Positions 1-63,598 of a stretch of 64,000 bases of DNA are shown here, in pieces (positions within the stretch are counted from its first letter, which is position 1; each line of letters begins with the position of its first letter). The DNA comes from a virus (taxonomy: Duplodnaviria > Caudoviricetes), in IMG/VR virus record IMGVR_UViG_3300005259_000074, positions 32,001 through 96,000 of that record; one strand, 5' to 3'. The notes under the pieces are model-generated. The model made no database searches. It was given only the letters and a program-made list of their open reading frames with translations, and had not been told where the DNA came from. A program made the translations under genes and the position numbers.

Positions 1-1587
1 CACATCTGCAGTAGAACTCACATCTTATCTGTTTTCCAATGTAAGCTGAACACCAGTACTTTCGAAACCAGTCGGGATGATCATCATGCGCACACGCTAT
101 GTACATGTCACAAGTCCTCGTAGACTTCGTTGAAGTGGGCGTTGATCCTCGCAGAACTCCCTTCGCAGACTTCAGAACTCTCGTCTCCGAACTCGCATCC
201 ACCGCCGGACCTCTGTTTGTAGTACTTGCACTTCGCTTGGAACTTGCGGAGCCTCTTTATCTCCTTCTTGTAGCGGTAGTCTTCGCTCAGCGGTATCTTG
301 GAGTAGTACTTCGCGAGGTGAGGCCACGTCTCGAGTTCGCACTTCCGCTCCCGCTCAGCGGACTCGAGGAACAGCCGCAGCCAACGCCTAGGCGAACACA
401 CGTAGTACACGCGAGGAACGCGAAGATCATACAGCAGCGGTTCTTCGCGTTCTATGAGGCAGAGGTTGTCTTTGTCGCTTCGAAATTTCATATCTCGTCT
501 AATTTTATATATGCCTCTTCAGCCATAGCCGCTTCGAGGTTTGTGCAGATGCGAGGTGACACTCCAGAAACGTACACACACTTTCCGCCATGGTGCATGC
601 TCATCTCGTAAAACTCGCAGTCCATCTCTTCGTCTGCTTTACAGAATTTGAAGAAGTATGTGATCGGCGAAGAGGGTTCGCTCGACTTCACGCACGTCAC
701 TTTCATTCGTGGCCGCTTCATATCATGTCTAAGTCCTCTTCACTCTGTAAGTCATACCACGCTTTTACTGAATTGCACCTGTAAGTCATGATGTCGCACC
801 ACTTGCACTCGCGTTCTCTCTTCCCAAGTTCGAAGTACTTGCACGCAGTCTGCCCACCATCAGGAAGACAGAGCAAGGGTTCATCCAGTAGTTTCAGAGC
901 TTTTAATTCTTTCACAAGTCCTCCATCTTCCTCTCGAGGTGCGCTTCTTCGCAATAGCACCGCCTCTTGACGTCAAAAGGGTTGTAGAACTTACACGCAG
1001 GCCAGTGAGGCTCCATCTCACCGGCCCTGCGCTGGAAATAAGAACAATCTTCTTGGCCTCTGTTCCAGCGTATGCCACCGCATATCCACATTCTATCTCT
1101 CTGCTCGCAGTAAGAAGTAGCTCTGATCACACTTCCTCCATAGCGTACGCCAACCTCGCTTCTTCGTTTGTGCACTCGCAGTTGTTCGTGCTGTGTTCAC
1201 AGATAGTTCGGTGATCATAACTCGTCATGTCTATCTTAAAGTACCGGCAAAATCGCTGATTGATAATGGACTGGTATGGAGGGTTGCAAATCCACTCATG
1301 TTTTCTTCCACCGTCAAAAGAGACGCAGAATGATATAGAAGTGTCTATTGCTTTCATCATATGTCGTCCATCGCTCTGTCTAGCCCTATGTTGGAGATAG
1401 CTTCAGCGCACGTGCAGTCATTTAACAGAGTATTATCGGAGTAAGAGAGGTACTTGCACTTCGACAGCGAAGCATATTCATCCTCCGGCTCATAGTATGC
1501 GCATTTCTCTTTATTTCCGTAGGAGTCAAGAAAACTACAAGCGGGCTTCTTTCCGTCGATCCTCTCTATGCAGAAGTTAGTCCTCAT
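1..1587 (-). repeat. Cys-rich mini-protein array A (7 CDS: 1..106 partial, 108..491, 488..721, 718..915, 912..1130, 1127..1360, 1357..1587)
   Basis: Members have 5-6 spaced Cys with CxYF/CEFY cores and tails YEDL, KLDEI, DLDMI, KMEDL, AMEEV, AMDDI, and are linked by 4-nt start/stop overlaps. 1..106 was read manually as MYIACAHDDHPDWFRKYWCSAYIGKQIRCEFYCRC and runs off the window. Confidence 0.85.
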
Positions 1588-1594
1588 AGATCAT

Positions 1595-1930
1595 TCACCA
1601 CTCCTCTCTTCTAGAGTAAGGAAAAGCTATAGCGTTCAATCCACTACGAGTGAGCTCAGCGACTATGTTGCTAGCGCCGACAGGATTCATCGAGTGCACT
1701 ACGATCTTCGTGTTCTTGAGGTGTCCTTCAGCGATGATCCACCTGACGAGCTCTATCATGTCCCCACCCTCACCTAGGTCGTGGTCAAAGAAAGCGACGT
1801 CGTAGTCGTCCCACTCTATCATTCCCTTAACGCCTTCGACCGTCTTCGCCGGAGCGATCTTGTGTTTCTCGAAGCGCGAGAAGAACCAGTCGATGCGCTT
1901 TTGGTCGTCATCTACGATGAGTATGTTCAT
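1595..1930 (-). CDS. cyclic-phosphate-processing receiver-like (cREC) domain protein
   Basis: MNILIVDDD...FFDHDLG...KIVVHSMNPVG matches the stand-alone phage receiver-like family. Confidence 0.7.
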   Translation of the reverse strand: MNILIVDDDQKRIDWFFSRFEKHKIAPAKTVEGVKGMIEWDDYDVAFFDHDLGEGGDMIELVRWIIAEGHLKNTKIVVHSMNPVGASNIVAELTRSGLNAIAFPYSRREEW

Positions 1931-1954
1931 GCAGCTCTCCTGTCAATGATAGTC

Positions 1955-1990
1955 AATATAACCCCCAATTCACAGGATGTAAAGGGAAAT
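1955..1990 (-). promoter_or_regulatory. sigma70-like early promoter
   Basis: The minus strand reads TTCCCTTTACA-N17-TATATT, upstream of 1930 and array A. Confidence 0.7.
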
Positions 1991-2159
1991 CAGCACAAAT
2001 TTTTAGTTGTTCTACTCAAGAGATTCAACGCCAACCACTTATAAGAAAATACGAGAAACTGATGAAGTTCGCTGTACAACGTTCACTTCCAGAGTTATGG
2101 TATACACGTAAGAGGGACAGCGGCGTCCTTCGACAAACAGTAAGGAGGAGACTGTTGAT

Positions 2160-2633
2160 ATGTACGCTATTCACGTGACAAGCAAAGACATTCAAACTGG
2201 TTCTCTTCTAGTCAGCAACCAGACTCAACAGCAGACTTATAAGTTGGTTTTTGAACTTTACAACAGAGTCGCGCTACGCTTAGGAATCAACCTTTTCCCA
2301 TCTTACGGATACGCGTATCGCACTGGGCAACCGAAGATCAAATCATTTTCGGGGGTCTCTAAGTTCTACTTAGTTGAGTCTAGCGACGTTCTAGCTTGTG
2401 ATTTGAACTTTTCAGTCTATGTGACTATGGAATCTTTCTTGTCAGCAAGACAGTATGACGGAAGAACTCTCCAAGAACGTCTCTCCAACAGGGAACAATG
2501 TGTAATGAGCAGAGCTGAGGCCTATTTTAAAAACCCTGTTCCGATAGAAAGAGAGGAATTAATTTCACCCTCTTGGAAAATCGTAAGACGCATAGCTTTT
2601 GAGGATATCCAAGATGATACTTTCTCCAACTGA
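2160..2633 (+). CDS. hypothetical protein
   Basis: 157 aa ORF with AGGAGG upstream; AT-richer than its neighbours. Confidence 0.7.
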   Translation: MYAIHVTSKDIQTGSLLVSNQTQQQTYKLVFELYNRVALRLGINLFPSYGYAYRTGQPKIKSFSGVSKFYLVESSDVLACDLNFSVYVTMESFLSARQYDGRTLQERLSNREQCVMSRAEAYFKNPVPIEREELISPSWKIVRRIAFEDIQDDTFSN

Positions 2634-2645
2634 TATCATGAAACA

Positions 2646-3764
2646 GTGAGGTCAGAGATGGCAAGAACAATCGAGTACGAGCAACTACCTTATTACGGTG
2701 TAATCACGATGATGAACACTTGCAACATCAGAGTCCGCGTGACTGAGACTGTTGAAGGCGCTATTAGGCCGATAGTCAGAGTCATAGAAGTGCGCGGAGC
2801 AGGGGCGGTGACATCAGATTTCTCGACGTCGCTGGTGTCTAAAGCTGCCCGAGAGCTGGCTTCTGTGAAGATAGCCTCTTGGAGAGACTCTAATGGACAG
2901 GAAGTGTCTACTATTGGGCCCGATCGCAAGTGTCTCGACGCTCCTGAAGACCTCCGCCAAGAGGTGTTGGACTTCATCGGCGAGAAGATGTTGGACCTCT
3001 ATGCTGAGCTGAAGATCGATTACGACTTCTCGCCGATAACTGCGGTATGTAAAGCTGTGACAGCTTCTGAGAAGTCGTTCGAAGCTGTGTCAAAAGACAC
3101 TCCCACTGCAGAGAGGCTCGCTTTCTCCCCGTTCTTCACCAAGAAGGACCACACAAAGCGTCCGAAGCGAGACTCGTGGTTCACCCCTAGCATTACCAGC
3201 GTTAACGACGGAGAAGCATGCTTGATCAGCACGACTACACCATTAGACAGAAAAGTCATCACAATCATCACTCCTGTAAAAGACAGGTTTTACTGCGAGA
3301 TGGCTTACAGCAAGGTGGTGAAGAACGTGTTCAAGAGGGGGAAGTCGATCCCTTTCACGCGCTGGATGCCAGTCGAGTGTAAGACGCTGAAATGCATAGA
3401 CGATATCATCGACAACGTCGTGAATGCCCACAAGACAATGTACGATATAGACGATGCGGTGATCGCGAGGAAGATGTCTGTCAAAGAGCAGTCTGCTCAG
3501 CTGTTGAAAGATATCGGGATGACTGGGATCGTGTCAAATGACGAGAGAGTAGAAATTAAGGTGTACTTTTCCGCCGAGGAAGATCTGAAAGATAACCGAC
3601 AGCACATGAGAAGCTGGGTCAGGATCAGCCAGAACAAATCCGGCTATTCCCTGGACTCTGCGAGCTTGCCGCCGCTGACTATCGATGATCTGAAGCGAGT
3701 GCTGAGTGTACTTGACGAGAGGGTTACAGACCACGCCGCGGACGTGAAATTAGAAGGTGTGTGA
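2646..3764 (+). CDS. hypothetical protein with C-terminal tag (VKLEGV)
   Basis: 372 aa ORF that overlaps the next gene. Confidence 0.75.
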   Translation: MRSEMARTIEYEQLPYYGVITMMNTCNIRVRVTETVEGAIRPIVRVIEVRGAGAVTSDFSTSLVSKAARELASVKIASWRDSNGQEVSTIGPDRKCLDAPEDLRQEVLDFIGEKMLDLYAELKIDYDFSPITAVCKAVTASEKSFEAVSKDTPTAERLAFSPFFTKKDHTKRPKRDSWFTPSITSVNDGEACLISTTTPLDRKVITIITPVKDRFYCEMAYSKVVKNVFKRGKSIPFTRWMPVECKTLKCIDDIIDNVVNAHKTMYDIDDAVIARKMSVKEQSAQLLKDIGMTGIVSNDERVEIKVYFSAEEDLKDNRQHMRSWVRISQNKSGYSLDSASLPPLTIDDLKRVLSVLDERVTDHAADVKLEGV

Positions 3765-4327
3765 TGCAGAAACTCAAGATAAACGAGAAGCGGCTCTGCC
3801 GATTGACATCTAAGATGGCTGCGAGTATCGTCCCGCACATGGAAAGAGTGGAGTACGCGTGGTCGCCGATAGACGATAACGGTCTCATCACACTGAGAGC
3901 CCGCGTCTATGCGAAGGCGTACGACCACGCGTCGTCACACGAAGTGTACTACATTGAACCCGATGACCCTCCACTCGAGAGGAAGAAACAGCACAGGCCT
4001 CTCCTGTGGAGGTACCGCCAGAACGAGGAAGTGTTGAAAAAGGTGCAGACTGACATCGTCGTCCACTTAGATCCATGGCTGTGGCGGACGGAGATCGTCT
4101 TCGACAAGTTAACTAAGCGTCTTGAGACCGCTGTCGTTCCGGCGGCCTTTTCGAAAGAGTCTAACCCTGACTGGGAGTGTTATGTACACGCTTTCTACGA
4201 TAGAGGCAGGAACACCTGCGTGTACAAGGGAAAGAACAACACGGATGTGTACACCTTCTGCTACACTTTCAGGTACATGAAATGGGTGCACGAAGACGAG
4301 ATAATTCGGGCAATGGAAGACCTGTGA
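3761..4327 (+). CDS. hypothetical protein with C-terminal tag (AMEDL)
   Basis: 188 aa ORF with a 4-nt overlap to the upstream gene. Confidence 0.75.
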   Translation: MMQKLKINEKRLCRLTSKMAASIVPHMERVEYAWSPIDDNGLITLRARVYAKAYDHASSHEVYYIEPDDPPLERKKQHRPLLWRYRQNEEVLKKVQTDIVVHLDPWLWRTEIVFDKLTKRLETAVVPAAFSKESNPDWECYVHAFYDRGRNTCVYKGKNNTDVYTFCYTFRYMKWVHEDEIIRAMEDL

Positions 4328-4335
4328 GTCCGGAC

Positions 4336-8524: not shown

Positions 8525-9559
8525 ATGGTTACAAAGAGTGAACTAGCGAAGTCCAACAGGACGAGTGGCTGTCGAGCGTGGTCGAGTGATCCGAAAGAAC
8601 GGAAAGGACTGTGCCATGCTTACACGAAGTGCTACTGCAAGTGGTTCAAACCTCTAGACAGAAGAGTTGAAGACTACAGGACAGCGGCATGCCGCTTTCA
8701 CAACGGCGGTTACTGCACGTGCTGGGCTGCCCTCCGAGAAGCTCGAGAAGAATTCATGAAGCAGAGAGTCGCACAAGCGCTGGAAGAACTATGAAGACGA
8801 TACACAGTCACTGCTACATGATAATGACACCCAGAGGCCATCAGCACACGTGCTTGTCAAAGGTCGTGTCTTTCTGCAAGTGGTCTGTCGAGGCGACTGA
8901 CGGGAGATGCGAGCACGCATTCTTCCATTCCGACGACAGGACAACAGAGTGCATGCGCTCGGAAGCCAGAGAAGAGACCAGCGAGTACGAGGCGGCGTTG
9001 AGGATGGAAGAGATATGAAGACAATAAACCACTGCATTACGATGGAGGCGCATTTCATCAAGAAGTTCGCAGACGAACGCCAACCCGGCGACCACATGTG
9101 CGTGTCCATCGCGCAAGATTACTGCAGATTCTTCCAACCGGGACACGAGAGGTGGACTAACGGTGGGATGTCTTTCATGTGCGCGCACTGTAAGACCGAT
9201 GAACACAAGAATTACAACTGCACGTGCAAAGAAGCGATCGCCGACGCAGATGAAGCGCTCTTAGCGGAGAAGTTAGAGGAACTATGAAGGAAAATTGCTG
9301 CATCACCATAACTAACAGCATCACGCTCTTCAGAAAGAATCTCACTCCGGGAACTCACTACTGCGCGTCTAACATCTCGGAGTTCTGCAAATTTTACAAA
9401 AAGACAGTAGAGACGCTGCGTAGTTCATGCGGTGAGATTAAGACTTTCAAGTGCGCTTGGAATATGTCTCGCGATAGTGCTAGTAGTGTCTGCACTTGCA
9501 AGGAAGCGATAGATGAAGCCGACGAGGACGCCATCGCAGAGAAACTGGAAGATTTGTAG
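8525..9559 (+). repeat. Cys-rich mini-protein array B (8525..8794, 8791..9018, 9015..9287, 9284..9559)
   Basis: Cys skeleton; tails ALEEL, RMEEI, KLEEL, KLEDL; ATGA overlaps. The last two members are visibly close paralogs (CTCKEAI.(D/E)ADE...AEKLE.L). Confidence 0.85.
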
Positions 9560-11555: not shown

Positions 11556-11860
11556 GACTCGAGAAATACGACGTGTTCAAGTGCTCTCACGATTGCGCGA
11601 TAACGCTGGTCGAAGACGACAGATTTTCCGTGTCGTTCACTAGAGGGTTATACGTCGTCCTGATTGCAATACACGGACCACCGCCGCACAACCTTGTTGA
11701 ACTCTACGGAGTGTCTGGCTTAGACCCACTCATAATCCGTAACATCTCCAAGAGAGTCTCCGTTGAGACCCTCAAGAGGAGCATGGACTTCGGGTACATG
11801 TCTTACGACGAGAAAGATTCTCTGGAACTCAAAACCAACCACAAGTTGGAGGATCTGTGA
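11552..11860 (+). CDS. hypothetical protein with tag KLEDL
   Basis: GTGA overlaps on both sides. Confidence 0.7.
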   Translation: MRLEKYDVFKCSHDCAITLVEDDRFSVSFTRGLYVVLIAIHGPPPHNLVELYGVSGLDPLIIRNISKRVSVETLKRSMDFGYMSYDEKDSLELKTNHKLEDL

Positions 11861-12580
11861 AGGAGAACCTCTGTAAATTCTACGGCGTAAAGATCTACGC
11901 TTGCAATTGTTTCGACCCCGGGCACCAGCACCTCCCTCCGGTGTCGGACTGCAAGTACTTTGAGCAAGATGGAGTCTCAGAGAGACGGTGCATGCACTCC
12001 CATGGAACTTGGACGTGCCACTGTGGAGAAGCTCATCTCGACGCCAAAGCGACTTACACTATGGAGAACTTATGAGTGTGAGAGTCCTCGCAGATATGCC
12101 CAGCAGGCTCTGCATCGTCGGAGACGGACCGGTGTTCGTGTGTCAGGCTGACGTGTTCTCTGATGGGCATTGGAACTGCGCCAAGTACTCTAGTAAGAGC
12201 GGTCAGTATACGTGGTGCGAACATGCTGTACACACGGAGGGTGGGCTCTGCGTGTGCAGACACCCGGAATTGCTGGTAGATCTCGCACTAGAAGGACTGT
12301 GAGGATTTCAGTGGACAAAGTCAACTTGTGCAAGCTGATAAGGATTAGGTACTACTGCTTCTCCTCGAGGATCGAGAGCTCTAGGAAGAGAACTTACAGA
12401 CGGAGAGACTGTGTGTACTTTAAGCGGGGAAGAAAACGAGGATCGAAACAGTTGGACTGCACTTACTGCTTAAAACCTGGCGCTTATTGCACCAACCCAC
12501 AGGCGAAATCAGACGCACTCTCGGCCAAGAATGCAGCTGAACTAGAATCGAAACTGGAAGACAAACTAGAACTGATATAG
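11857..12580 (+). repeat. Cys-rich mini-protein array C1 (11857..12075, 12072..12302, 12299..12580)
   Basis: MKENLC../CKYF/C.H..C.C skeleton; tails TMENL, ALEGL, KLELI. Confidence 0.8.
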
Positions 12581-13712: not shown

Positions 13713-14725
13713 ATGAGTACTCTAGAAGCAAAGAATTACTGCGCCTACTCGGACGTCTTTGGAATGCCCGTCAAGAGGTTCAAGTGCGAGAAACCAAAGG
13801 AGTCTACCAAGTGCAAGTACTACGAAAGTGACGAGACACCAACGACTCAGATGAACGAGTGCATGCACGAGTCTTTCGGGGTCTGTGCAAGGAGTGCAGC
13901 TAGGAAGGAGGCGTTAGCCGAAGTTGAACTGATGGAGAGACTGGAGAACATATGAACAAGTACCTATCCAGAGCTATAGACAGCATCGAGCGGTTCGAAC
14001 TCTTCATGGTGATCGGAGGCGTACTGACGATCTTCATCAAATCAGCCGTCGATGCAGCCTTTGATCTCGTGCACGAACACACGGGGTTTGACATCATTCT
14101 GATGGTGTTGGGAGCCACAGGGGTCATCTGGAATATCATTCTGATCTACACGGTGTTCTCAAGAGCTCGCAAGTACAAGCGAGATAAGGAAGAGCGCTTG
14201 ATTCTGGAGAAGTTAGAAGATGTGTAAGGTCAACAGGTGCTGGATAAGGAATTTCGACGGTCTCTTCGACGACGTCTACACCTGCACTTGCTCACAAATT
14301 ATCATCAGCAGATCTCCTAACATATTCGACTACGACACGTGTCAACACTTCGTGCAAGTTCCGGACTACGCAGACGAGATGTGCAAGTACGAGGTATCGA
14401 GGCCAATCGTCGGCATACTCTGCGGATGTCCAGAAGCGCAGGACGACGCCGAAGCAAACAAGAAGTTGGAGGAACTGTGAAGAGGAACTTGTGCGGAAAG
14501 TACGGTGATGTGTTCATCTGCGAAGCCGAAGATAGGACGTACGTTCCTGTACGTCCTTCATCACTATTTGAAGACAACCATTCTACGTCTCAAGAAGATT
14601 GCATGTACTACAAGAAGGGTACTCCACTCTACAACGAATGTTACAACTTAGTGAACGGAATAAAGTGCAATTCTAAGAGAGCTAGAAAAGACGCCAGCAT
14701 AGTAGCTATGATAGAAGCTCTATGA
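13713..14725 (+). repeat. Cys-rich mini-protein array C2 (13713..13955, 14220..14480, 14477..14725) interrupted by tagged membrane ORF 13952..14227
   Basis: Cys skeleton; tails RLENI, KLEEL, MIEAL. Confidence 0.8.
13952..14227 (+). CDS. 2-TM membrane protein with tag KLEDV
   Basis: Two hydrophobic helices followed by a basic-acidic tail. Confidence 0.7.
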   Translation: MNKYLSRAIDSIERFELFMVIGGVLTIFIKSAVDAAFDLVHEHTGFDIILMVLGATGVIWNIILIYTVFSRARKYKRDKEERLILEKLEDV

Positions 14726-17100: not shown

Positions 17101-17143
17101 CTTGTAGAACTACTTGCAGTTGTCCACTGCTAAGCTTTTCAGC

Positions 17144-24289: not shown

Positions 24290-25107
24290 GTGACGACTCT
24301 AGAAACCTACATACCGGTGAAGAACGAGAGGACTGCGGTAGACGTACCTTTTCCTAACTTCATCGTCACATCCGCGGTTTCTTTCAAGTCCCCACAGAGC
24401 ACTCACGTTATAAGGGCAGAGCTGAGGACGGCCGAGGGAAAGATCCAGAAGTTCACCGTAGAGTGCGTGTTGAAGACCGATTTCATCAGGTGTCCTTGCT
24501 ACGGCAACTACAAGGGCTTCGGTGTCAAAAAAGTAGAAGACATCATATCGTTCTGGATGTCTTTCAGGAATGATAGAGGGTACGGAGATCTTAAACCAGT
24601 CAGTTGTATGCACATGGACACCGACTGGAAGTACCAGACAGGTGAATCGATCGTGTGTCACTGTTCGGAAATAGCTTCGCACTTGATAAACACGTGCTAT
24701 AAAGATGAGTTCACGCTGCAGAAGTTGGAGGAGATATGACAGACGCCGAACGAGAGGACATCTTAGACTCGTACAGAGTGGTGAGCGACTCCAGAGACGA
24801 GCCTAACGCCGGAGACATGATCATCGTCAAGCTCGAGTCTCCCATCGGACACCGGATCATAGGCGAAATGAAGTTCGACAGAAACCACGTCAAGTACTTC
24901 GCGTCGATGTGCGTGTTGAAACCAGATTTCTCCAGGTGTCCTCGCTACTCGGAGAGCGGTAATTGCTGCGTCCACATGTACCCGAGTAAAGACCCTCTCG
25001 AATCATGGTGGGCTGTCCAGTGTTTTGATGAAGTGATATCGAACTTCGTCATACGCAGAGGTAATCTAGAAGACGAATTCGCTCTAATGAAAATGGAAGA
25101 AATGTAG
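24290..25107 (+). repeat. paralog pair with N-terminal extension, Cys domain and tag (24290..24739, 24736..25107)
   Basis: CVLK.DF.RCP.Y shared; tails DEFTLQKLEEI and DEFALMKMEEM. Confidence 0.7.
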
Positions 25108-26768: not shown

Positions 26769-27257
26769 TTTAGACAACTTGTGCAGACCCTGGGGTCTCT
26801 CAGTCGACTCACAAGGACACTGTTTCGGAGCTGATCCATTGATGGGTCCATATGGTTCTGGTTTCGATCGTCAGACCGAGTGCGCTTACTTCGAATACTC
26901 CGCAGTAAAAGACAGATGTAAGTTCTTCATCGGTTATCGCAACTGCAGTTGTGATAGAGCCCTGGAGAACGCTATCGTGGCCAGAAAGATAGAAGACCTG
27001 TGATGAAATCTCCTCTGTGTAAGAGTTACTGGAACGGATGGCACTGCGAAGCTTCGCGGATTGACCTGACGTGGTTTCCACCGACATTCGTCTCTGACGC
27101 TGAGAAGCAATCCCAGTGTGAGTTCTTCGAACGAGACAACAAGAATGAATGCCGATGGTTCAATGTTAACATCAACAATTTCCACGTGTTCAGCACCTGT
27201 TCGTGTGGTGCTGCCCACGCGATGGTGTTGGCCGACAAGATAATGGAAGATTTCTGA
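26752..27257 (+). repeat. Cys-rich mini-protein array D (26752..27003, 27000..27257)
   Basis: Cys skeleton; tails KIEDL, IMEDF. Confidence 0.8.
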
Positions 27258-31366: not shown

Positions 31367-31612
31367 ATGTCAGATGGGAAAACATCATTCGCTGTGTTCA
31401 ACATCGGTGGATTTATGACGTTCTGCATTGCAAATGGCCGTCAACACGATTGCACTTATTTTGAACCCACTAAAGATCTATCTGTTTGTAAGTGGCAGAA
31501 GAGCACTCCGAGTCTATTCTGTCTAGAATGTCGGTGTAGACCAGCGAGAGACGCGGCCCAAGACCAATATTTCGCTGAGAGAGACTTAGAGCGAAAATTA
31601 GAGGACATATAG
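31367..31612 (+). CDS. Cys-rich mini-protein (tag KLEDI)
   Basis: FC...DCTYF...CKW...CRC; start reassigned to MSDGK. Confidence 0.75.
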   Translation: MSDGKTSFAVFNIGGFMTFCIANGRQHDCTYFEPTKDLSVCKWQKSTPSLFCLECRCRPARDAAQDQYFAERDLERKLEDI

Positions 31613-38000: not shown

Positions 38001-39588
38001 GGTCATCGTAGTACTCGCATTCATGATTCTTCATAGCGAGCAGCATGCAGTAGTACTTTCCATTTATCGCTTTAGAGCAGGCGTTCATAGTTCCTCTATG
38101 TTGAATTCGACTGCCGCGCTGAGGATTGCATCGCAACTGCTGCACCTATTCATCATCTTCCAGCCTATGTCGGAAGAGACGTCTACTTCGAAAGCGCACC
38201 CTAAGTAGGTCACGTACTTGATGTGGGTTGAAGATGGTTGTTCTACCGCTTTTTTCCGAGAAAAGGGATCGAATTCACATGGTTGAGATAATATGTTTTT
38301 CGCCATCTCGTGTCGCTTAGTGCAGTAAGCCACTCGCGTGGTGTTTTCGCGCTCTATCTTGCAGTAGTTCATCATAACTCTTCCATCTGTTTGTCTAGTA
38401 TAGCTTCTTTGCTATTGCACAGAGCAGCCGTACCTCTTAGATTTTCGTACATACACCTCTGTATCATCTTACTGAAGATTTCTCCTGGTTCATAGTATAC
38501 ACACTCACAACTACCTAATATAGTTTGACAGTAATAAGTCTTATCGATCAGAACGCACTTGTTGTCTTTCACAACCTCTCCAACGCATATGACAGCTTAG
38601 CTTCTTTCGCCGCTTCTTCGCAATAGCACTGGTGCCCGTGGCAGTGGAGACAGCCGTTCTTGTCATCGCCACGAGACACGAAGTACTTGCACTCCTCTGC
38701 AGCCATGTCAAAGAACTCTGACTTGCGCCAGCACATCTCCCTTTTTACAGAGCACATGTTGATTAAACGTTTCACAATTCCTCCAGCACGTCGGCAATTG
38801 GGTCTGTTGCAGCGATAGCGACGGGATTTTTACACACTCTAATGTTGGGGTTCGATTTAAGTATCCCGGCGAACTGACACCAAGACTTGTGGGACTTCTT
38901 GAAGAACTTACATCCATCCCACATCGACATTCCAGATAGTGAAACGCACTTCCATCCAGCGACCCGGTCGTACTTACACATGTTAGTCTTCATATCTCTT
39001 CAATCTTCGCTGCGGTGATGGCTTCTTCGCAAGTGCACAACTTCATGCGCCTAACTCCAGATAAATTCTCGTATATTAACGTCTTCGTGTGTGCGCACAT
39101 TACCCACCACGTAGTGGGATTCCGATAGTCGCACGCCCCTCGCGAAGTCAGATTGACACACAATGCTCTACCTTCTTCGTCTATTTTACAGTGGTTCATA
39201 TGTCTTTTATCTTAGCTTCGAGACACGCCGGCTCACAACGACACACATAACCGCTAGATATCTGTACGCTAAACTTGCACTTCTCCAGACTCATGTCTGA
39301 GTACTCACACTGACTCATCGAGTAGAAACCAGTCCCAAGACACACGAACGCGTCTCCAGCAGCTTCGCAGAGGGTGTAATCGCACTTGTGCTCTTCTTCA
39401 GAGAACTTTATGGCTGTTCCACACTTGCATACGTACCGAGAGTCCCTGTGCCACTCTGCATAAAAGCACTTGTTGCAACCGGTATCTTGCTGCACGTAGT
39501 GGACGCACTCCTTCTGTCCAGCGTCTTTGACACTACAGTAGTTGCCAGTCTCGTTCCTGACGCACAAGTTGTTTGGGAGCTCCAACAA
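32053..39588 (-). repeat. Cys-rich mini-protein array F, 28 CDS (32053..32265, 32262..32465, 32462..32710, 32723..32956, 33933..34145, 34147..34395, 34392..34649, 34646..34903, 34900..35154, 35151..35402, 35399..35611, 35608..35892, 35889..36104, 36101..36310, 36307..36519, 36516..36737, 36739..36963, 36965..37207, 37204..37422, 37419..37646, 37643..37882, 37879..38088, 38085..38375, 38372..38572, 38569..38775, 38772..38993, 38990..39199, 39196..39588)
   Basis: Cys skeleton and tag in every member; near-continuous overlap chain, interrupted by 32971..33936. Confidence 0.9.
32971..33936 (-). CDS. GFVSNSS-leader protein with Cys-rich C-terminal part and tag SIDNL
   Basis: Start reassigned to MKTRRGFVSNSSTTSF at the ATGA overlap; several CxxC motifs. 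Confidence 0.75.
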   Translation of the reverse strand: MKTRRGFVSNSSTTSFVVDLGSRSMPALAAELILSRNPISDEELQFLDAINDMFDLPIDANIALSLSANNFCFPSSGCNTRIAKVGDVVACNASMNDHFSDQDRGVKGVRRTGRDKLQIEFDGESFNMSGIPFADVSMSKVLRGLVERTQYDKWENCHRKKSCWDDQAEFKFAGASYQRFCEACFPVLQPFAKTKKDHIALSSSVIQQTTPCHLIDRICGGDDKYCKMCVFKKKDIGHKMFSGVSTFERLYEKSLQTLCQEMKERIIVDPIPTCFMCGAPKDLTEFFEDKETHRMPMEAALCDPCLRNILDIGIYSSIDNL

Positions 39589-39640: not shown

Positions 39641-39711
39641 AAATCTGAGAAAAATTTCTATTTTGACTCCGGCATCCATTTCGCCTAGTATTCTACTGGA
39701 AAGGAGGACTC

Positions 39712-40008: not shown

Positions 40009-42315
40009 TCATGGGGTTAGACTACATCTACTTAGAACGGGGGAGGGGACCTGCGTACAGCATCTTCGATAAGAAGATGAAGTGTCTTGGTCTCTCAGGT
40101 AAGTCTATCCCAGGGTGCAAGTTCTATGTCAGAAAGAAGAAGCTCATCCCCTTCTTGGTACTCAAACTACTGCAAGTGAAGGAGGAAGATCGGTGCACTC
40201 CTTTCGAAGTGGGTGACCTAGCCGACATCACCTGCGAGTTCCACAGAGAGAAAAACACTTGTGAAAATCCCGAAGTCAAACTGGAGTTTGCCCTAGAAGA
40301 GGTATGACTGTGTTGAAAAGTAAGCGCGAGAGCTTGTGTAAGATTGGAGATGGGTACTATTCGTGCAACTTTGAGTTCAGATTCTTTGACGACTGCGTCC
40401 ACTTTGAACATCTCGACAAAAGGCACATTCCAGGCGTCTGTAAATTCTTTAGGTCAGTCGTAGACACTAACACTATGAAGCTGAGATGCATATGCTCGTG
40501 TCTCGAAGCGGCGGCCGCCGCTGAATTGGAGAACTTGTGAGCGAGAACTTCTGCCGGCTCAGAGAGACAGGATACGAGTGTGTTGGCTGTGCTGTCTACA
40601 ACAATGGTGGGTTAGGTTGCACATTCAGGAAATCCGCACTTGGGTCGCAGTGTTCATTCGTCCGAGTTGATGTCGTCGAGCTGTCAGAATGCAAACATGT
40701 CATGTTCTACCACTGCGGGAGTAGAGACGCTCAGATCGAAGCTAAACTCGAGGAAGTCTGATGATCTTGAAGAACATGTGTCAAACGTATTTCAACGATG
40801 GAGTGGGAATGCTAGGCGGAATTTGTCCGCTCAAGGTGAATGATACTGGGTGTGTTCATTTCATAGCGTTCGTCGACGTTAATAAGAACATCTATTGCAT
40901 GCACTTAGGAGTCGCTGGCAACTGCTACTGCTCTAAAGCGATCAGAGAGAACACCACTCCTGACATGAGAACACTCCAAATTCTAGAGGAAATGTGATGG
41001 AAAACTGCTGCGTCCCTAATAGAGACGGAACATTCAAGTGCACTGCGTACGCTCCCATATCAGGCAACCACTGCAGGGTGTGCAAGTACTACGAGTCATG
41101 GTACTTGATGTACTTCGGAGAGTGTAAACACCTCTGGAGGACTAACGCAGGATCGCTCACTCGCTGCGAGTGCACTAACGAGTGGGCGCGCATCGGAGAG
41201 GCAATGGAGGAGATATGAGCATTCCCAAATCGACGCTGCGCATCGACGTATACGACACGCACAGACGGGTCCCGGTTGAACTGATCGATCCCATGTGCGA
41301 GCAGATGGTGCAACTAGAAGAAGAGGGTATGCTGTTGACCAACAAGTTGGGCATCACGCCCGGGCGTCTATTCTCCGCTGAGTCGTTCAGGAGTGATGAA
41401 TTTGGTCTGACTGCTCCCGAAGATTCGGTGTTCTTCGCGCTGATGGACGATCGCGTGCTGGCGGGATACTCTCTGTACAGGCACAACGCAGGCAGGTTGA
41501 GGATAAGTGCGCTGTACGTCGTCCTAGAGTACCGGGGACGAGGGAACGGCCGCAGATTGCTAGAGTGCGTGTTGGCCCACATCGAGGAACACTATCCGTG
41601 TTCCAGCGTGGAGATCGGAGTCATCGCTAACAACACCCGAGCTCTGAAGTTGTACGAAGACTTAGGTTTCACAGTCCCGACTCACTACACGTTCATGAGA
41701 TCGAAATGAACTGCTGCCGCATACTCAGAGCGATAGAACCGTGCGAAGAGTACCCTCGTGGGGAGATTGAGACGTCCTGTGGTGCCGAAGATGATTTCAG
41801 GTCGTGTGAGCACGCCTTTCTAGCTGAAAATGATAGGTGCATGCACTGGTGTTTAGGGTACGACAGCTGTCGGTGTCATCAAGCTATCATAGATAATCTG
41901 CCAAGAGACATCAAAATTTGGTTGAAATTAAACGACATATGAAAACTAACGAATGTTTATATGTTATATTCTTAAACGGAAGAGGCGGGTATTGGTGCAA
42001 TGCAGCTCTCGCGCATAGCGCCGTCAGCAAAGAAGTGACTTTCAACGGTTGGATAGAGCGAATGAACCACTGCGAGGGTTTCTCACTAGAAGAGGGAAAC
42101 ACTTTCTGCAAGTACTTCAAGGAGAAGGAGACGACGTGCACTCACCGAAGATTGAGAAAAGAAGCTCGCCTCCTTTACAAATTAGAAGAACTGTGACGAG
42201 AGAGGAAGAGATCATCGATGAATGTATGATGACTTTGCTAAAAGAAGCTTTCGCAAAGGCGATAGATGAAATTACAAGTGATATGGAAGCAGATGATAGA
42301 CTAGAAAAGTTATGA
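40005..42315 (+). repeat. Cys-rich mini-protein array G (40005..40307, 40304..40540, 40537..40761, 40761..40997, 40994..41218, 41706..41942, 41939..42196, plus Cys-poor tagged 42193..42315)
   Basis: Skeleton, tag and overlaps; interrupted by a GNAT gene. Confidence 0.85.
41215..41709 (+). CDS. GNAT family acetyltransferase
   Basis: ISALYVVLEYRGRGNGRRLL (motif A) and NNTRALKLYEDLGF. Confidence 0.88.
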   Translation: MSIPKSTLRIDVYDTHRRVPVELIDPMCEQMVQLEEEGMLLTNKLGITPGRLFSAESFRSDEFGLTAPEDSVFFALMDDRVLAGYSLYRHNAGRLRISALYVVLEYRGRGNGRRLLECVLAHIEEHYPCSSVEIGVIANNTRALKLYEDLGFTVPTHYTFMRSK

Positions 42316-52969: not shown

Positions 52970-55388
52970 ATGAAATCCCCATACAATACGTATGTTCATC
53001 CATATGGGACTTTCATAACCTGTAAAGTACCTCCGGATGAACAGTGCACACACGCATGTAAGTACTTTGGATGTAGAAATGAATATCTTCCAGTAACTTT
53101 GAAATATGCTGGACAATGCCGGCACTTCTCGTGGTCGAACAGCGAGTGCATGAATCCAGATGTCAGGAAAGAAGTGAAATTGGTAGAGGAGATGGAACTA
53201 ATTTGAATATCAAAGATGAAACGTACTACGGCTTCACATACAATCCCCGGTGGAAAGCTGATTGCAAGAACGGTATCCACCTCTGGGACGAGGTGCTGTC
53301 TGCGGACGGACACTATCTAGTGTGTGATGAGTGCCAGTTGATGATACGCATCGAGAGCAAAGCGGTAGACCGCTCGTACGAAGAGCCAGAGTACTCGCTC
53401 AACAAGAAACTGGAGGAGATATGAATGCCCCACGTTCGTGCTGCAAGAGGATAAACGGACGCTTCTTGTGCTACCGCTACGCCGTCCCGGAAGCAGTGTG
53501 CGCGTATTTCTTGCACAAACCGGGTGTTCATGATGACCCTAAGTTAGTGCCATCTAGATGCGAATTCGCGTTAGATCCAGCTATTACAGGCACTTCTACC
53601 AAAGGACTGATCACGATAGAAATCTTCGGAGAGTGCTTCAACGACGAGGCGAAGCTGTTAGCTGAGCTGGAGGAGATATGAACGGCTGCGAGATTATAGT
53701 CTGTGACACTGGAGATGCTTGGGCAAACTGCAGGACATCGACGGAGAGCAATCTGATAGAGACTATGTGTGAGTTCTTTAAAGATACTTCAAACACGTAT
53801 CCACAGTGTGTCTACAACAAAAAGTTCCCGCAGTGTACTTGTATCACGGCGATAGAGAAAGCTTGTGCACAGCAGGGGATAGACACCTCGGTCATATGGA
53901 ACTCCATAGCAGAAGAAAAATTGGACGACATATGACATGACAACACCGTCGACAAGAAACAACCAGTGCGTAGTAACGAAGCAGACGGGTGGAACATTCT
54001 ACAAGTGCGTCGACAACAGATTTCCCTTTCAATCTGCGTGTTCGTTCTTTGTGCTGTATCTTTCTCTGTACAAATGCAAGTACTATGAGTCACAATGCGG
54101 CAATTGCACCAACAAAAAAGCGATGAGAGACGCACTCGCAATGAAGAGATTGGACGACTTATGAGCCAGAAGAAGAACTTCTGCGTCTGGAAAGACACTA
54201 CCGACGTGATCGGCCTCAGCTACTCTTATGCTAGGTGTGAGGCGTCTTTAAATATGTGGAGACATCAGACGGAATGCGCATTTTTCGTCCCAAAACTCAA
54301 ATGGTCAGACTCTTGTCTATTCTTCGCGTTCGACGAACTTCCAACGTGTTTGTGTAGCGCTGCTATCAGTGAATCACAACTCATGAAGAAGATAGAAGAC
54401 ATATGAAGAAAAACATGGGTGTGATAGTTGAGAGCAAAGCTACGAACACAGAGGAACTACTGTGCATTGCGATATCTGACTTCTTTGAAACGGAGTGCAA
54501 GTTCTATTCACAGTCTGAAGGTGAATTCCGAATATGTAAGCACGCTTTAGATTCTCACTTCTGTGCATGTGCAGAAGCTAAAATGGACGCACTGACAGAT
54601 AAGAGGATGAACCAGAAATGAGTGTGGACTATATGAGATCCTACAGGTTAGACATGGAGAATAACCGAAAACGTAAGAAGACGTTGGAACCGATGCAGAA
54701 CTTCTGCAAGGTGTACGAAGAGCTCAACACCGTCACTAGAAAAGTCGACACTGCGCAGAAGACTTGCGCCGCGCCGTCTAACCAAGCGTACCGCTGCACG
54801 TTCTTCAAGTTCAAGTGTCATGACACATGCGAGTACATGGAGTGGTCTGATGAGTTAGACTGCACTAACAAAGAAGCGTACAGAGATGCGATGACGAACG
54901 AGAAGTTAGAGCAGATATGACTGGCTGCAAACTCATCAACAATAGCACCGTGAATTCGGACGGCTTTCCAGTGTGCGGCATAGATATGAACTCGCAGAGC
55001 CTGTCGACATGCGATCACTACACGAGGTACATGGGTTACAACGGTCGACACACGTGTTCCAATTATGATCGGAAGTACAGAGAGTGTCTCAACGAAGAAG
55101 CGATAAAGGAAGCGAAATTAGACAGACGATTGGAGAACTTGTGAAACGACTGGAGAACGTCACTATCGCGGGCACCCGTTCACTAGTCTTTCCGCGGTAT
55201 ATGATATGTCTTCACAGGATAAAGTACTCGTGTGGCAGTACGAGTGTCGTGACAATATGATAGAGGAGAACGTTAAGTCTATGATTGACAACCGCCGTTC
55301 GTGCAAATACGTGAGGCTGCTGTCCAATAACGACGTATTCTGTATTCACGAAGAAGCAACACTACAAAGAAGACTGGAAGAACTATGA
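52970..55388 (+). repeat. Cys-rich mini-protein array I (52970..53206, 53421..53681, 53678..53935, 53937..54164, 54161..54406, 54403..54621, 54618..54920, 54917..55144, 55206..55388; tagged non-family 53203..53424)
   Basis: Skeleton and overlaps; tag in all but 54403..54621 (ends KRMNQK). Confidence 0.85.
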
Positions 55389-59188: not shown

Positions 59189-59235
59189 CCCATCCGTCGG
59201 TAATATAGACAGCGAACAAACGAGAACGGAGCACA

Positions 59236-60159: not shown

Positions 60160-60160
60160 C

Positions 60161-60649: not shown

Positions 60650-60661
60650 CATGGGTGTAAG

Positions 60662-60901
60662 ATGGAACACATAGATATAAAAGAACACTGTGAACCGGTG
60701 TATTCATCTAGTCATCCACCGTACTTGCACTGCAAATACCAGAACGAGTTTTCCGAAAGAATGTACCGGTGTCCGATGTTTGAATCATCTTTCGTCGACA
60801 AAAATTTCTGCTACTGGTTCATTGCGAGAGATCGTGGAGAGTGCCGGACCCCATCCGCGCTGAAGGAACTAGAAGTAGATGAGAAGATGGACAGCATATG
60901 A
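60662..60901 (+). CDS. Cys-rich mini-protein (tag KMDSI)
   Basis: HC..HC..RCPMF..FCYW..EC. Confidence 0.75.
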   Translation: MEHIDIKEHCEPVYSSSHPPYLHCKYQNEFSERMYRCPMFESSFVDKNFCYWFIARDRGECRTPSALKELEVDEKMDSI

Positions 60902-61143
60902 GGATGACGTTCAAATATCATAAACACGGAGACCGCCGTACTGTCAAGAAGTTCATATGGTGGCCTATGATACTGATGCTAGACCCACCGAAGAACGGTT
61001 CTCTCGAACGGGGTGATGTGCAGATGCGGTGGTTGGAGTACACTTACGTCACTCAGCTGTACCTCATTAGCGGAAAAGGATCTCACTGGATAGACTTTTG
61101 TTGGGGTGACGCTGCGTTAGAAAGAGCTCTTGATGACCTCTAG
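60898..61143 (+). CDS. conserved phage hypothetical protein with tag ALDDL
   Basis: GDRRTVKKFIWWP...RWLE. Confidence 0.7.
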   Translation: MRMTFKYHKHGDRRTVKKFIWWPMILMLDPPKNGSLERGDVQMRWLEYTYVTQLYLISGKGSHWIDFCWGDAALERALDDL

Positions 61144-61772: not shown

Positions 61773-61984
61773 TCGCCAGCTCCTGGAAAGTCGGGTAGGT
61801 CTAACTTCTCGTGCGAGTAGTCCGTCGGGTCAGCAGTCAACCTATTGCACTCTCTATTCCAGCAAACCGAGCACAACTTCTGCTCGTTCAGCTTGCTGGG
61901 ACGGCGGACGTTGCACTGCAAACCGCAGCGCTGGCATATCTGCATCCTGATGTTGTACCGGTTCTCCATGTCTCTATTTATCAT
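61769..61984 (-). CDS. small Zn-finger-like protein
   Basis: CQRC...CSVC. Confidence 0.55.
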   Translation of the reverse strand: MINRDMENRYNIRMQICQRCGLQCNVRRPSKLNEQKLCSVCWNRECNRLTADPTDYSHEKLDLPDFPGAGE

Positions 61985-62039
61985 TTCAGAAACATCTCGT
62001 TGATAATTAACGACTTAGAAGAAATAATGCGAGTTTCCC

Positions 62040-62122
62040 TTTACAAGCCCACTATTTGGTTGTATATTGATTACCATTAAGGGAACTTAACACGGGCTTC
62101 CGCCAAATGGAGAACGGAAATG
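62040..62122 (+). promoter_or_regulatory. repeated promoter-leader cassette, copy 3
   Basis: TTTACA-N17-TATATT-GATTACCATTAAGGGAAC..CGGGCTTCC..AAATGGAGA..ATG. Confidence 0.8.
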
Positions 62123-62431
62123 AAAGCAAGAACGAAGCGAGACCTCGAGATCGACCTCGACGTCATGACCAACCAGTACAACGAGGCGATGAAGAGGGCG
62201 AACGCGGCTGAAGCAAAACTTGCTCAGTGCACGAAGTACGCGGTCCTCCAACTCTGTCCCGCATATCCCACACTCGAAGACTTGAAAGGGGCAGAATGCG
62301 AGGCCGAGCAGGCGGACGTCAGAGACACCAAAGAAGACGCCAATATTCTTGCTCGCTATCGGAATGCCGTCAGCGTCACTGAAAATTACATCATCGCCGA
62401 AGTCTTCAACGGCAAATTCACCGGAAAGTGA
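62120..62431 (+). CDS. hypothetical protein
   Basis: First gene after the cassette. Confidence 0.7.
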   Translation: MKARTKRDLEIDLDVMTNQYNEAMKRANAAEAKLAQCTKYAVLQLCPAYPTLEDLKGAECEAEQADVRDTKEDANILARYRNAVSVTENYIIAEVFNGKFTGK

Positions 62432-62742
62432 GATACGCAATGGAGCAGACACTCAGGAAGTACTGCGATAAGACGGATTTTGGCATCATCCGTAAGACGA
62501 TAGCCGAGGTCGGAGCCCTCCACGGTTTCGGACATGGGACGGGAAAGATCTACTCGGTCCGTAAAGCGCTGGAAGACGCCAGCATACAGCCACCGCCGGT
62601 AGAATCTCTCGACGCCCTCATAGCGGTCGCCATCAACATCATTCGCGACACGGACCACGAACTGGCAGCTCGGTTCCAGAGCTACGACCTAGACGAGATC
62701 ACCACCGACGAATTCACCAAGAACATGAGGGACGGAAAGTGA
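62428..62742 (+). CDS. hypothetical protein
   Basis: GTGA overlaps. Confidence 0.65.
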   Translation: MRYAMEQTLRKYCDKTDFGIIRKTIAEVGALHGFGHGTGKIYSVRKALEDASIQPPPVESLDALIAVAINIIRDTDHELAARFQSYDLDEITTDEFTKNMRDGK

Positions 62743-63155
62743 AGACAGAAAACGTGCTGACTTTGCTCAAGAAGGTGGGGACTCCTGATGACGTGCTCAA
62801 TAAGATGAGGCTCGACATACTGAGTGACGGCGTTGAACCAGTCTTAGAGGGCTTCTTGGAGAAATTGAACCACGACGAGATCAAAAAACTCTGTTCTTCC
62901 ATCCGGACTTCTTACAGAGGCACGGTCAATTTCATACCGATTATCATCACAATGTTGAAAAACTTCTCGTCAGCCTACCCTGATCTGGACATGCGAGTTC
63001 TCATCGAGAAGACTGAGCGCGCGCGCGATAAAAAGGAATTTTTGAAAGAATTGCGCGAGGTAATGAACTTACCTCTTCAAGACAAAGCAAAGAATGACGC
63101 CGCTCGTCGGAAGTTCTTGTCTGAGCACTTCGCGAACATAATGAATGAAGAGTAG
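62739..63155 (+). CDS. hypothetical protein
   Basis: GTGA overlap. Confidence 0.65.
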   Translation: MKTENVLTLLKKVGTPDDVLNKMRLDILSDGVEPVLEGFLEKLNHDEIKKLCSSIRTSYRGTVNFIPIIITMLKNFSSAYPDLDMRVLIEKTERARDKKEFLKELREVMNLPLQDKAKNDAARRKFLSEHFANIMNEE

Positions 63156-63158
63156 GAT

Positions 63159-63598
63159 GTGGTGAAGCGGGAAAACGAGTGTTTCGACGTGGACGATCAC
63201 TGGGACGATGAAGTGAACAACTGTGGTTGTCGTTTCGATAAGAGGTTCTCCCGCTGCCTATTCTACTCGCCAGAGGATGCGGTGTACGACGACTGTAGGT
63301 GGTTTGACGGTTATAGGTACTGCCGAAACCCAGAAGCGATACGCAACAAGAACTTATACAGAGCGATTGACGAAATATGATGACCACTAAAAAGAACATG
63401 TGTTGCGATACTGATGACGTCTTAGGAGGTATGCAGAACTGGTGCGCTGCTACGTCTAGAGGACACCTACAATCGGAGTGCAAGTTCTATGGAAAACTTG
63501 CAACTGGATCGTGCTACTGGCGAGACAGATCTGCAATGTGCACTAACCCACTGGCGATAGAAGACAAAGACCTGACTAACGCACTGGAGAAAATATGA
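63159..63598 (+). repeat. Cys-rich mini-protein pair (63159..63380, 63377..63598)
   Basis: Skeleton; tails RAIDEI, ALEKI. Confidence 0.8.

Follow-up and report, generated by a model that had tools for sequence, protein, structure and literature searches.

Why would a phage genome give so much of its length to small, cysteine-rich proteins of a single kind? The question is raised by a stretch of 64,000 nucleotides (nt) of viral DNA, called the window below, which comprises positions 32001-96000 of the 262,470-bp virus record IMGVR_UViG_3300005259_000074, and which had been described, in a first reading of the bases alone (the original prediction), as holding tandem arrays of such genes. We report here that these genes form a large family, and we have hardly any doubt that it exists and shares one fold. 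The reading that we favour for it, at a probability of roughly 0.4, is a repertoire of early, cytoplasmic, metal-clamped binders of diverse host targets. The feature is real and large and, as far as the libraries and literature that we searched show, undescribed.

The family and its predicted fold

We built a profile hidden Markov model (HMM) from a seed of 101 open reading frames (ORFs) of at most 140 aa, each with at least 5 Cys and the C-terminal motif described below, iterated it until convergence, and scanned all ORFs of at least 40 aa at a threshold of E<=1e-3. The model matched 115 ORFs genome-wide, 91 of them in the window, and none of the shuffled or reversed versions of the same ORFs. 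An independent six-frame search of the genome with an alignment of 79 window members made with MAFFT (alignment A1) identified 109 places, and about 10 more divergent copies score below the HMM threshold. The earlier manual count of about 100 members in the window is thus borne out, as 91 HMM matches plus about 10 divergent copies. The family covers 21,945 nt, or 34.3% of the window and 10.6% of the genome, very near the third of the window that had been estimated; in the window it lies on both strands in 16 same-strand runs, 12 of which hold at least 2 genes, and the largest 21, 17, 12 and 9 genes.

The HMM consensus reads, in order, M-K-x-N-x-C, [YF]-x-C, C-x-[FY]-[FY], C-x-[YHFW], C-x-[C/N/S/H], x-E-A and K-[LMI]-E-[ED]-[IL], and so reproduces the skeleton that had been drawn by hand. 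The last element is the family's form of a C-terminal tag, Φ-E-E/D-Φ, where Φ is a hydrophobic residue. Emissions of the loop states are nearly flat throughout, in agreement with the claim that the loops vary in every copy. Five Cys are near-universal, at median spacings of 11, 11, 12 and 10 residues with ranges up to 37. A sixth position, occupied by C, N, S or H just ahead of the helix, would be a helix N-cap rather than a ligand, to judge from its residue spectrum and its place. The median member is 76 aa long, and Cys content is about 7%. A 15-residue hydrophobic window was detected in just 2 of the 115 members, in neither case N-terminally, so that the members lack signal peptides, as the original prediction had held; its observation of intact frames applies both to this genome and to a second phage. 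The loops are enriched 1.2-1.6x in R, H, W and Y and depleted in L, A, I and V. Net charge of the core ranges from -3 to +4 with a median of 0, a spread that suggests diverse targets, and the whole-protein median is -2, many of the proteins being acidic. In one metagenomic homologue an N-terminal transmembrane segment is followed by a basic stretch and then the domain which, by the positive-inside rule and a topology read by eye, would face the cytoplasm.

We used AlphaFold2 with two independent alignments to predict the structure of the domain, as had been proposed. With A1, a 73-aa member was modelled (model 1) at a mean pLDDT of 94.0 and a pTM of 0.79, as a beta-hairpin with Cys1 and Cys2 at its two ends, short bridges with Cys3-5, and a C-terminal helix that reaches the last residues. 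With A2, an alignment of 96 sequences none of which is from this genome, a 62-aa untagged plasmid homologue gave (model 2) a pLDDT of 93.4 and the same order of strands, cysteines and terminal helix. Since the same order of elements was obtained from independent alignments, the family has one shared predicted fold. Foldseek searches of both models against PDB and BFVD gave no match at E<=0.001. In VIA-align, where models without a clear match typically still reach Z scores of 7-8, the highest Z in a comparison with 48,161 chains was 3.1 for model 1, and no chain reached a Z of 2 for model 2. Sulfatases weakly resemble model 1 in their C-terminal subdomain (Z 2.0-3.1), but the likeness is absent with model 2 and we regard it as noise. 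The ESM Atlas gave no lead (scores 0.78), and a homodimer prediction (two copies plus Zn) scored 0.06 and was not used as evidence either way. The predicted fold is apparently new, as neither model matched a solved structure.

Scans of 79 members against Pfam, PHROGs and NCBIfam gave no recurrent match; one member had a single weak match to a 'host nuclease inhibitor' PHROG (E 0.014). Neither in these libraries nor in the PDB did the family coincide with a characterised one, and in full-text literature we found no such family described at such a copy number, in keeping with the original prediction's statement that it knew of none.

Evolution and distribution of the paralogues

A 14.7-kb contig, L014, is syntenic with the window around the helicase gene and carries 36 members. 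We observed that 32 of these 36 genes are reciprocal best matches of window genes, collinear save for one swapped adjacent pair, and that each L014 orthologue scores far above the next-best paralogue. The paralogues therefore pre-date the split of the two phages and have each been individually retained: as judged from the sequences, they are old and kept as collinear orthologues, with no in situ diversification. The 4 L014 genes without a counterpart in the window indicate gain or loss.

Identity between orthologues is 35-71%, as compared with 92.6% for the adjacent helicase and 100% for the tail-tube protein of the same two genomes. We computed separate rates for the scaffold and the loops, a comparison that the original prediction had recommended. 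Over the 32 orthologue pairs, scaffold positions show 87% identity and a nonsynonymous divergence (dN) of 0.07, and loop positions 44% identity and a dN of 0.50. The corresponding core-gene values, with synonymous divergence (dS), are dN 0.05 and dS 0.82 for the helicase, and dN 0 and dS 0.36 for the tail-tube protein. The loops change at about 0.6-1.4 times the core synonymous rate; in other words, each gene has been kept, and its loops evolve at close to the neutral rate.

For 18 of the 115 members the highest-scoring paralogue is the adjacent gene, where roughly 2 such cases would be expected, and for 21 it lies within three positions, against 6.2 in shuffles; this excess points to old tandem duplication. 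Paralogues are 20-40% identical (95th percentile 41%). No reverse transcriptase (PF00078) was detected in the genome by a search that gave matches in control genomes, and a diversity-generating retroelement (DGR) is thereby excluded.

Beyond this phage the domain is scarce. An exhaustive HMMER search of 1.84 billion representative proteins, which took up the earlier call for a database search with an HMM, returned just 180 matches at E<=1e-3; among the best 150 of these, 47 are this phage's own and 103 are from elsewhere. A 5-kb contig, L018, carries 6 tagged members that are just 24-35% identical to those of this phage, and hence represents a third array-bearing phage. Outside the arrays the domain is found untagged and in 1-3 copies per contig: in an SU10-like podophage, in a lambda-like temperate phage, on two further phage-like contigs and on one plasmid. 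The podophage homologue is located among small genes beside a sigma-factor gene, on a contig with an SU10-type capsid gene, in surroundings that we read as a putative early region. In the lambda-like phage the homologue is flanked by an SbcC-like ATPase on one side and by RecT and an Apyc1-like hydrolase on the other. The plasmid copy, on Do28_1 of Desulfosarcina ovata (87593-87742, locus L021; a hypothetical protein in GenBank and unannotated in a RefSeq-derived table), is one of several small genes that follow each other on one strand close to ssb, ParA and a DUF4942 gene; the plasmid is of the MOBQ type and has a type IV secretion system. The presence of SSB genes is characteristic of the anti-defence islands of plasmids (PMC11541004).

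A complete 164-kb relative whose capsid protein is 56% identical has no family members, and neither do the helicase relatives in IMG/VR and metagenome contigs, which are only 33% identical. A word-indexed homologue search returned only this phage's own proteins, and a tblastn search of one member against 50,697 cultured phages gave no match. A search for related loci with the family alignment also yielded nothing, the alignment having no conserved stretch. From the few database matches, the low copy number elsewhere and the absence of members from the 164-kb relative, the domain appears to be a rare protein of mobile elements that underwent massive expansion in a single T4-like lineage. A sediment metagenome is the source of one homologue-bearing contig; together with the Desulfosarcina plasmid, this source suggests that hosts of these elements may be Desulfobacterota.

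The T4-like character of the phage is evident from its core genes, whose products include a major capsid protein of the T4 type (Gp23 family, E 4e-85), a tail sheath, a helicase of the DEAD_2/Helicase_C_2 type and a gp44-like clamp loader. No cultured phage has a capsid protein more than 37% identical to this one, cyanophages being nearest, and for this reason the source is an uncultured, deeply branching T4-like jumbo phage. IMG/VR labels the record as 'provirus', and its gene content is that of a T4-like phage; T4-like phages are known solely as virulent. In the protein collection, the longest contig for this phage's proteins is 313,637 bp, and the genome may thus exceed 262 kb.

The C-terminal ending and the possible role of the family

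Among the 98 tagged ORFs of the window, 85 end in ATGA or GTGA, such that the next gene starts on the stop codon. The Glu-Glu/Asp codons of the tag often spell GAGG, 8 nt upstream of that start, and selection of codons is biased at the junction: GAG is used at position -3 in 63% of cases versus 45% in gene bodies (odds ratio 2.1, p=0.003), CTC/CTT Leu codons are depleted at position -4 (4% versus 33%), and synonymous divergence between orthologues is lower there than elsewhere (pS 0.54 versus 0.73). Yet we rejected the possibility that the tag as a whole is a mere by-product of start-stop overlap and a Shine-Dalgarno sequence. Its second codon positions are invariant and its third positions loose, a pattern that fixes hydrophobic-acidic-acidic-hydrophobic residues. 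The tag is kept in 17 of the 22 family members that lack an overlap, and it is missing from 147 of 179 non-family overlaps, including all 21 in the structural module. In a relative without the family (G002), which has 62 overlaps, none of 212 genes carries the tag. We conclude that the tag is mainly a lineage-specific ending at the protein level, with a bias for the ribosome-binding site (RBS) on top. Stop-codon recoding and a polyprotein were also set aside: each following gene uses a different frame, and overlaps of the ATGA type account for the TGA stops.

The tag is present at the ends of members, as the original prediction had it, but is not confined to the family. It occurs in 43 non-family genes, where about 1 would be expected by chance on a rough residue-frequency estimate that was not formally computed. 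About 10 of the 43 are divergent members, and about 33 are unrelated proteins of 67-402 aa, small membrane proteins included. Conversely, about 17 of the 103 foreign homologues are untagged, including those on elements of other types (contigs L015, L019, L020 and L034 and the plasmid). In the window, two unrelated tagged proteins of 372 and 188 aa, which end in Φ-E-x-Φ, are encoded at 2646..4327 (+), and further tagged non-family genes are found at 10344-10619, 10906-11229, 11226-11555, 11552-11860, 14764-15309, 32971-33981, 51499-51876, 53116-53424, 60161-60649, 60898-61143 and 63595-64014. The first three of the latter, and one at 13952-14227 (all +), encode small proteins with transmembrane-like hydrophobic stretches, as seen by eye, and a charged C-terminal helix; the same type is found at genome coordinates 2770-3057, 177949-178380 and 246495-246860.

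What might read such an ending? A search for a phage-encoded PDZ reader revealed no PDZ domain in this phage, and mimicry of the tail of the phage single-stranded DNA (ssDNA)-binding protein gp32 was rejected because the gp32 homologue has another C-terminus. A ClpP-like serine protease (Pfam E 7e-18) is encoded outside the window, at genome 226066-226704 (+; L038 4067-4705); it is not found in the relatives G002 and G003, and four tagged proteins (118, 402, 79 and 371 aa) lie about 0.6-3 kb from it. This protease may be a reader of the tag or may simply be a prohead protease, and its presence in one genome makes it a pointer only. A stand-alone Peptidase_C39-like cysteine protease (genome 227604-228197, -; L038 5605-6198; E 1e-12) was rejected as a tag- or family-linked protease because G002, which has neither tag nor family, encodes a copy that is 39% identical. 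It is doubtful that the binders and the 33 or so unrelated proteins share, as a C-terminal address, an amphipathic helix with the ending K-Φ-E-E/D-Φ-COOH that is read by a lineage-specific factor, such as the ClpP-like protease or a docking hub.

With regard to the family itself, we propose that it is a germline-encoded repertoire of small (about 65-100 aa) cytoplasmic proteins with one compact fold, in which three short beta-hairpins, each closed by a conserved Cys, would be joined to a C-terminal amphipathic helix. The five Cys would come together at a metal site (Zn or an Fe-S cluster), which would stabilize the fold and leave the four inter-Cys loops free to vary; from the cytoplasmic location and the five conserved Cys we consider that metal binding is likely. 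The arrays fill gaps between core genes, and promoter-like sites occupy the few intergenic spaces found at array heads. Translational coupling into long operons, with sigma-70-like promoters ahead of them, would probably lead to early synthesis by host RNA polymerase, and the gap-filling arrays, promoter-like heads and coupled starts suggest that expression would be early and roughly equimolar. Each paralogue would then bind a different host or rival-element macromolecule stoichiometrically, targets in defence or takeover being likeliest, and the expansion to more than 100 copies would be an arsenal maintained by an arms race. The tag would have a double role, as the last turn of the helix, selected as protein, and as part of the RBS (GAGG) for the next overlapping cistron. 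This proposal of a binder repertoire draws on the cytoplasmic location, on five invariant Cys placed where the hairpins end, on loops that are free to vary and evolve fast, on the fact that each paralogue has been retained, and on the contexts of the homologues.

Several of our observations weigh against this proposal. A loop dN near the neutral rate fits relaxed constraint equally well, and weak constraint is not separable from diversifying selection because dS of the family genes is saturated. The five Cys, about 11 residues apart and without CxxC knuckles, do not form a classical zinc site. The confidence of AlphaFold2 may have been inflated by strong covariation of the cysteines, sigma-70-like sites are no more numerous across the region than in its shuffled bases, and the anti-defence part is guilt by association from three contexts.

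There are other ways to account for these proteins. They might be nucleic-acid-binding zinc fingers, related to the GRF type or convergent with it, whose loops tune specificity for ssDNA or RNA, for example in the shielding of phage nucleic acid or in gene regulation. The sole PDB sequence match (177,635 sequences) of two profiles built from non-overlapping sequence sets was to the tandem GRF zinc fingers of NEIL3, with the [FY]-x-C ... C-x-F-F-E segment of the family aligned with the F-[YF]-x-C ... C-x-F-F of both NEIL3 repeats, and single-copy homologues adjoin genes for the handling of ssDNA (ssb on the plasmid, and RecT and the SbcC-like ATPase in the lambda-like phage). The match has an E of 0.29-0.34, however, which is not significant, and among 79 members scanned against Pfam at E<=10 neither zf-GRF (PF06839) nor any other zinc-finger model was ever listed. 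The two-ligand N-terminal knuckle of GRF fingers is also missing, most members having a single N-terminal Cys (HMM states 19-21 being N-x-C). Neither model matched a GRF structure in Foldseek or VIA-align, although for so small a domain this is not evidence of a different fold. With a median charge of 0 for the core and -2 for whole proteins, many of them acidic, and with more than 100 different nucleic-acid binders in one phage being hard to rationalize, we regard this explanation as unlikely. Still less probable is a largely neutral or selfish expansion in which the junction (helix end, RBS, start and M-K-x-N) serves as a cassette for recombination and translational coupling and multiplies ORFs that individually lack a function. 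Conservation of the junction at both the protein and the nucleotide level, the same ending on unrelated genes of the same regions, as cassette exchange predicts, and the near-neutral rate of the loops are all consistent with it. But 32 of 36 genes remain one-to-one, collinear and in intact frames across a dS of 0.4-0.8, with a scaffold dN of 0.07; the 44% identity of the loops exceeds a rough estimate of about 30% for sequence free of constraint at such a divergence; and 10% of a packaged genome is a high cost for junk. We therefore give this expansion very little credence.

Two further explanations start from the cysteines. The proteins might be precursors of ribosomally synthesized and post-translationally modified peptides (RiPPs), with Cys crosslinked by a SPASM enzyme, helix and tag acting as a follower, and loops making up a library of natural products. 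Conserved ends and conserved Cys around a hypervariable middle do follow RiPP-like logic, and a radical S-adenosylmethionine (SAM)/SPASM gene (55385-56458, +) lies inside an array, its start overlapping the stop of the truncated member at 55206-55388, the only one of the 115 members so placed; the best NCBIfam similarities of its product are to peptide maturases, far below the cut-offs. Yet a 52%-identical orthologue of the enzyme is present in a 95%-complete 213-kb virus (L022) with no family members, the flanking sequence covered around the other phage and plasmid members, some 8-10 kb where that much exists, contains no called or annotated radical SAM gene, and the genome's other radical SAM gene (12592-13482) is RlmN/Cfr-like and not a peptide maturase. 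Members are long for precursors and are predicted to be compact domains with aromatic core positions (pLDDT 93-94), the NCBIfam scan of 79 members matched no SCIFF or other RiPP precursor model, and the C39-like peptidase is shared with a relative that lacks the family. The orthologue without the family, the flanks without radical SAM genes and the confident globular models together lowered our estimate of this explanation, which we now hold to be improbable. A role in metal, sulfur or redox handling, with the proteins as Fe-S or thiol carriers or in sequestration, in an anaerobic, sulfide-rich host and with copies for dosage, would suit the five conserved cysteines, the homologue in the sulfate reducer Desulfosarcina, the homologue contig from sediment and the two radical SAM enzymes of the phage. 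Dosage, however, favours near-identical copies, whereas here identity among paralogues is 20-40% and every one of them persists as an orthologue of its own, and Cys makes up only about 7% of residues; there is accordingly only a slight chance that this role is the right one.

Inhibitors of bacterial immunity and factors for host takeover have their main untapped source in the accessory genes of phages, which usually come to light as single, unrelated small genes. Here one scaffold with an apparently new fold is copied more than 100 times, with copies separately kept and loops evolving near the neutral rate. Were the members to bind, they would constitute a natural, pre-sorted library on a 70-residue metal-clamped frame, of use in host-target discovery and as an engineering scaffold, and phages would be seen to build immune-repertoire-like diversity by paralogy and not by retroelement mutagenesis. 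A common ending on more than 120 proteins of one phage bears on the sorting, timing and disposal of early proteins, and it illustrates cleanly how the same bases can serve both as a protein motif and as a ribosome-binding site; a tagged effector system, if that is what it is, would have no known counterpart in phages.

Arrays, neighbouring genes and known systems

The original prediction placed the arrays between bases 1 and 63,598 of the window. The arrays are there, but their bounds require correction, since the first array extends upstream of the window start and the last extends past base 64000. The first (1..1587, -) comprises, by HMM and start-stop overlaps, 6 complete members (108-1587) and 1 cut by the window start (2-202), and runs on upstream with 4 additional members. 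On the plus strand, the HMM identified 4 members at 8525..9559, the last of which (9284-9559) retains the tag although its TAG stop is overlapped by no gene. An array of 3 members (11857..12580, +) is directly upstream of the RlmN/Cfr-like radical SAM gene, and 3 HMM members at 13713..14725 (+; 13713-13955, 14220-14480 and 14477-14725) are interleaved with the tagged small membrane protein at 13952-14227.

Just upstream of the helicase gene are two N-terminally extended proteins of 149 and 123 aa (24290..25107, +). They were not called by the HMM, and their C-terminal halves, read by eye, appear to carry the Cys skeleton; each ends in the tag, and their L014 orthologues are 67% and 60% identical. 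Directly downstream of the helicase gene are 2 HMM members (26752..27257, +). The array of 17 HMM members at 27258..31225 (-), nearly all joined by ATGA or GTGA start-stop overlaps, is headed by a sigma-70-like promoter (31287-31260, -), and a single HMM member at 31415..31612 (+) stands behind another such promoter (31317-31344). At 32053..32953 (-) there are 3 HMM members and 1 divergent copy (32262-32465). The largest array, at 33933..39588 (-), contains 21 HMM members and divergent copies at 33933-34145, 36516-36737 and 37419-37691, and is headed by a sigma-70-like promoter at 39637-39610 (-). Its first gene (39196-39588, -) joins two family domains in tandem, in a product of 130 aa with 15 Cys. 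Metagenomes also hold two-domain and larger fusions (P0063, P0091, P0124, P0068 and P0059).

Divergent from the largest array is the operon at 40077..42196 (+), with a promoter-like site ahead of it (39663-39691), 5 HMM members at 40077-41218 and 1 at 41939-42196; a Cys-rich 78-aa ORF at 41706-41942, which has a near-tag ending and is not an HMM match, is probably a divergent copy. Downstream of the tail-sheath gene, the segment 46050..50255 (-) holds 12 HMM members (46050-49296), one more at 49950-50255, and divergent copies at 46997-47245, 47890-48129 and 49726-49950. The remaining HMM members are all on the plus strand: 9 at 52970..55388, the last of them (55206-55388, 60 aa) truncated; a single one at 60662..60901; and 2 at 63162..63598, where the array goes on beyond the window with a member at 64014-64238.

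Other genes of the window deserve brief mention. The product of the radical SAM gene at 12592-13482 (+), of 296 aa, is closest to the RlmN/Cfr RNA methyltransferases (NCBIfam E 4e-26, below family cut-offs); a phage-borne rRNA or tRNA C-methylase would be unusual. A second orthologue of the SPASM protein, 40% identical, is encoded on contig L023. At 6917-8503 (+), a 528-aa sulfatase-fold protein with an N-terminal extension of about 200 aa upstream of its catalytic domain resembles phosphoglycerol transferase (OpgB/MdoB) and LtaS (E 2e-35), and may be an envelope-modifying enzyme. A 431-aa open frame (17114-18409, +) runs antisense to the major capsid gene (17144-18532, -), and a 344-aa open frame runs antisense to the 334-aa ORF at 18552-19556; both frames are probably non-coding shadows of strongly biased genes. 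We found no tRNA genes in the whole 64-kb window, and no match in it to the T4 late-promoter motif TATAAATA, upstream regions of the capsid and sheath genes included, so that this lineage must use other signals for late transcription than T4 does.

In its general kind the family is familiar: with 115 diverged paralogues in same-strand runs and a signature of local duplication, it is a viral tandem multigene family of accessory proteins, and it differs from others in its scaffold, in its scale for a phage and in its common C-terminal ending. The MGF110 genes of African swine fever virus (ASFV) and the host-range arrays of poxviruses are likewise tandem, diverged small-protein paralogues, and are taken as products of an arms race with the host; MGF110 proteins are Cys-rich proteins of the secretory pathway with a short C-terminal sorting motif. 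The likeness is in the tandem diverged paralogues, in different viruses with different folds, and no homology is implied. Closer to the present phage, the hyperplastic regions of T4-like phages and the host-takeover module of SPO1 consist of small early genes between core genes, with strong translational signals, but these are mostly unrelated ORFs, whereas here one family with a common C-terminal ending fills the gaps.

GRF fingers are eukaryotic ssDNA-binding modules inside larger enzymes and are not known as stand-alone arrays. The GRF finger of NEIL3 (PDB 7omk, 7jl5) resembles the phage domain in being small, beta-rich and equipped with Cys ligands, and the aromatic-x-Cys ... Cys-x-Phe-Phe segment aligns with both NEIL3 repeats at a non-significant E; the phage family differs in having no N-terminal knuckle, two extra conserved Cys and a C-terminal helix. 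The prochlorosin and SCIFF/ranthipeptide libraries, like the family, consist of numerous small paralogues in which recognition parts are conserved and the middle is hypervariable, and SCIFF precursors have conserved cysteines as well, while here a radical SAM/SPASM gene is found within one array. Those libraries have an N-terminal leader, however, whereas the phage proteins are longer, predicted to fold by themselves, and conserved at the C-terminus and in distributed positions; also, enzyme and family do not co-occur elsewhere.

Anti-defence islands (Acr, Ard, Ocr, PsiB; PMC11541004) likewise contain small, fast-evolving accessory proteins in early or first-entering regions, and homologues of the family sit near a plasmid ssb, in a leading-region-like position, and beside an Apyc1-like gene. 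The family matches no known anti-defence family in PHROGs or Pfam, and such islands hold unrelated genes in few copies each, as opposed to the more than 100 paralogues of one scaffold found here. The targets of DGRs, finally, resemble the family in being phage-encoded, fixed scaffolds with variable binding residues. In that case one gene is rewritten in each generation; in the present phage, the diversity lies among old, stably inherited paralogues.

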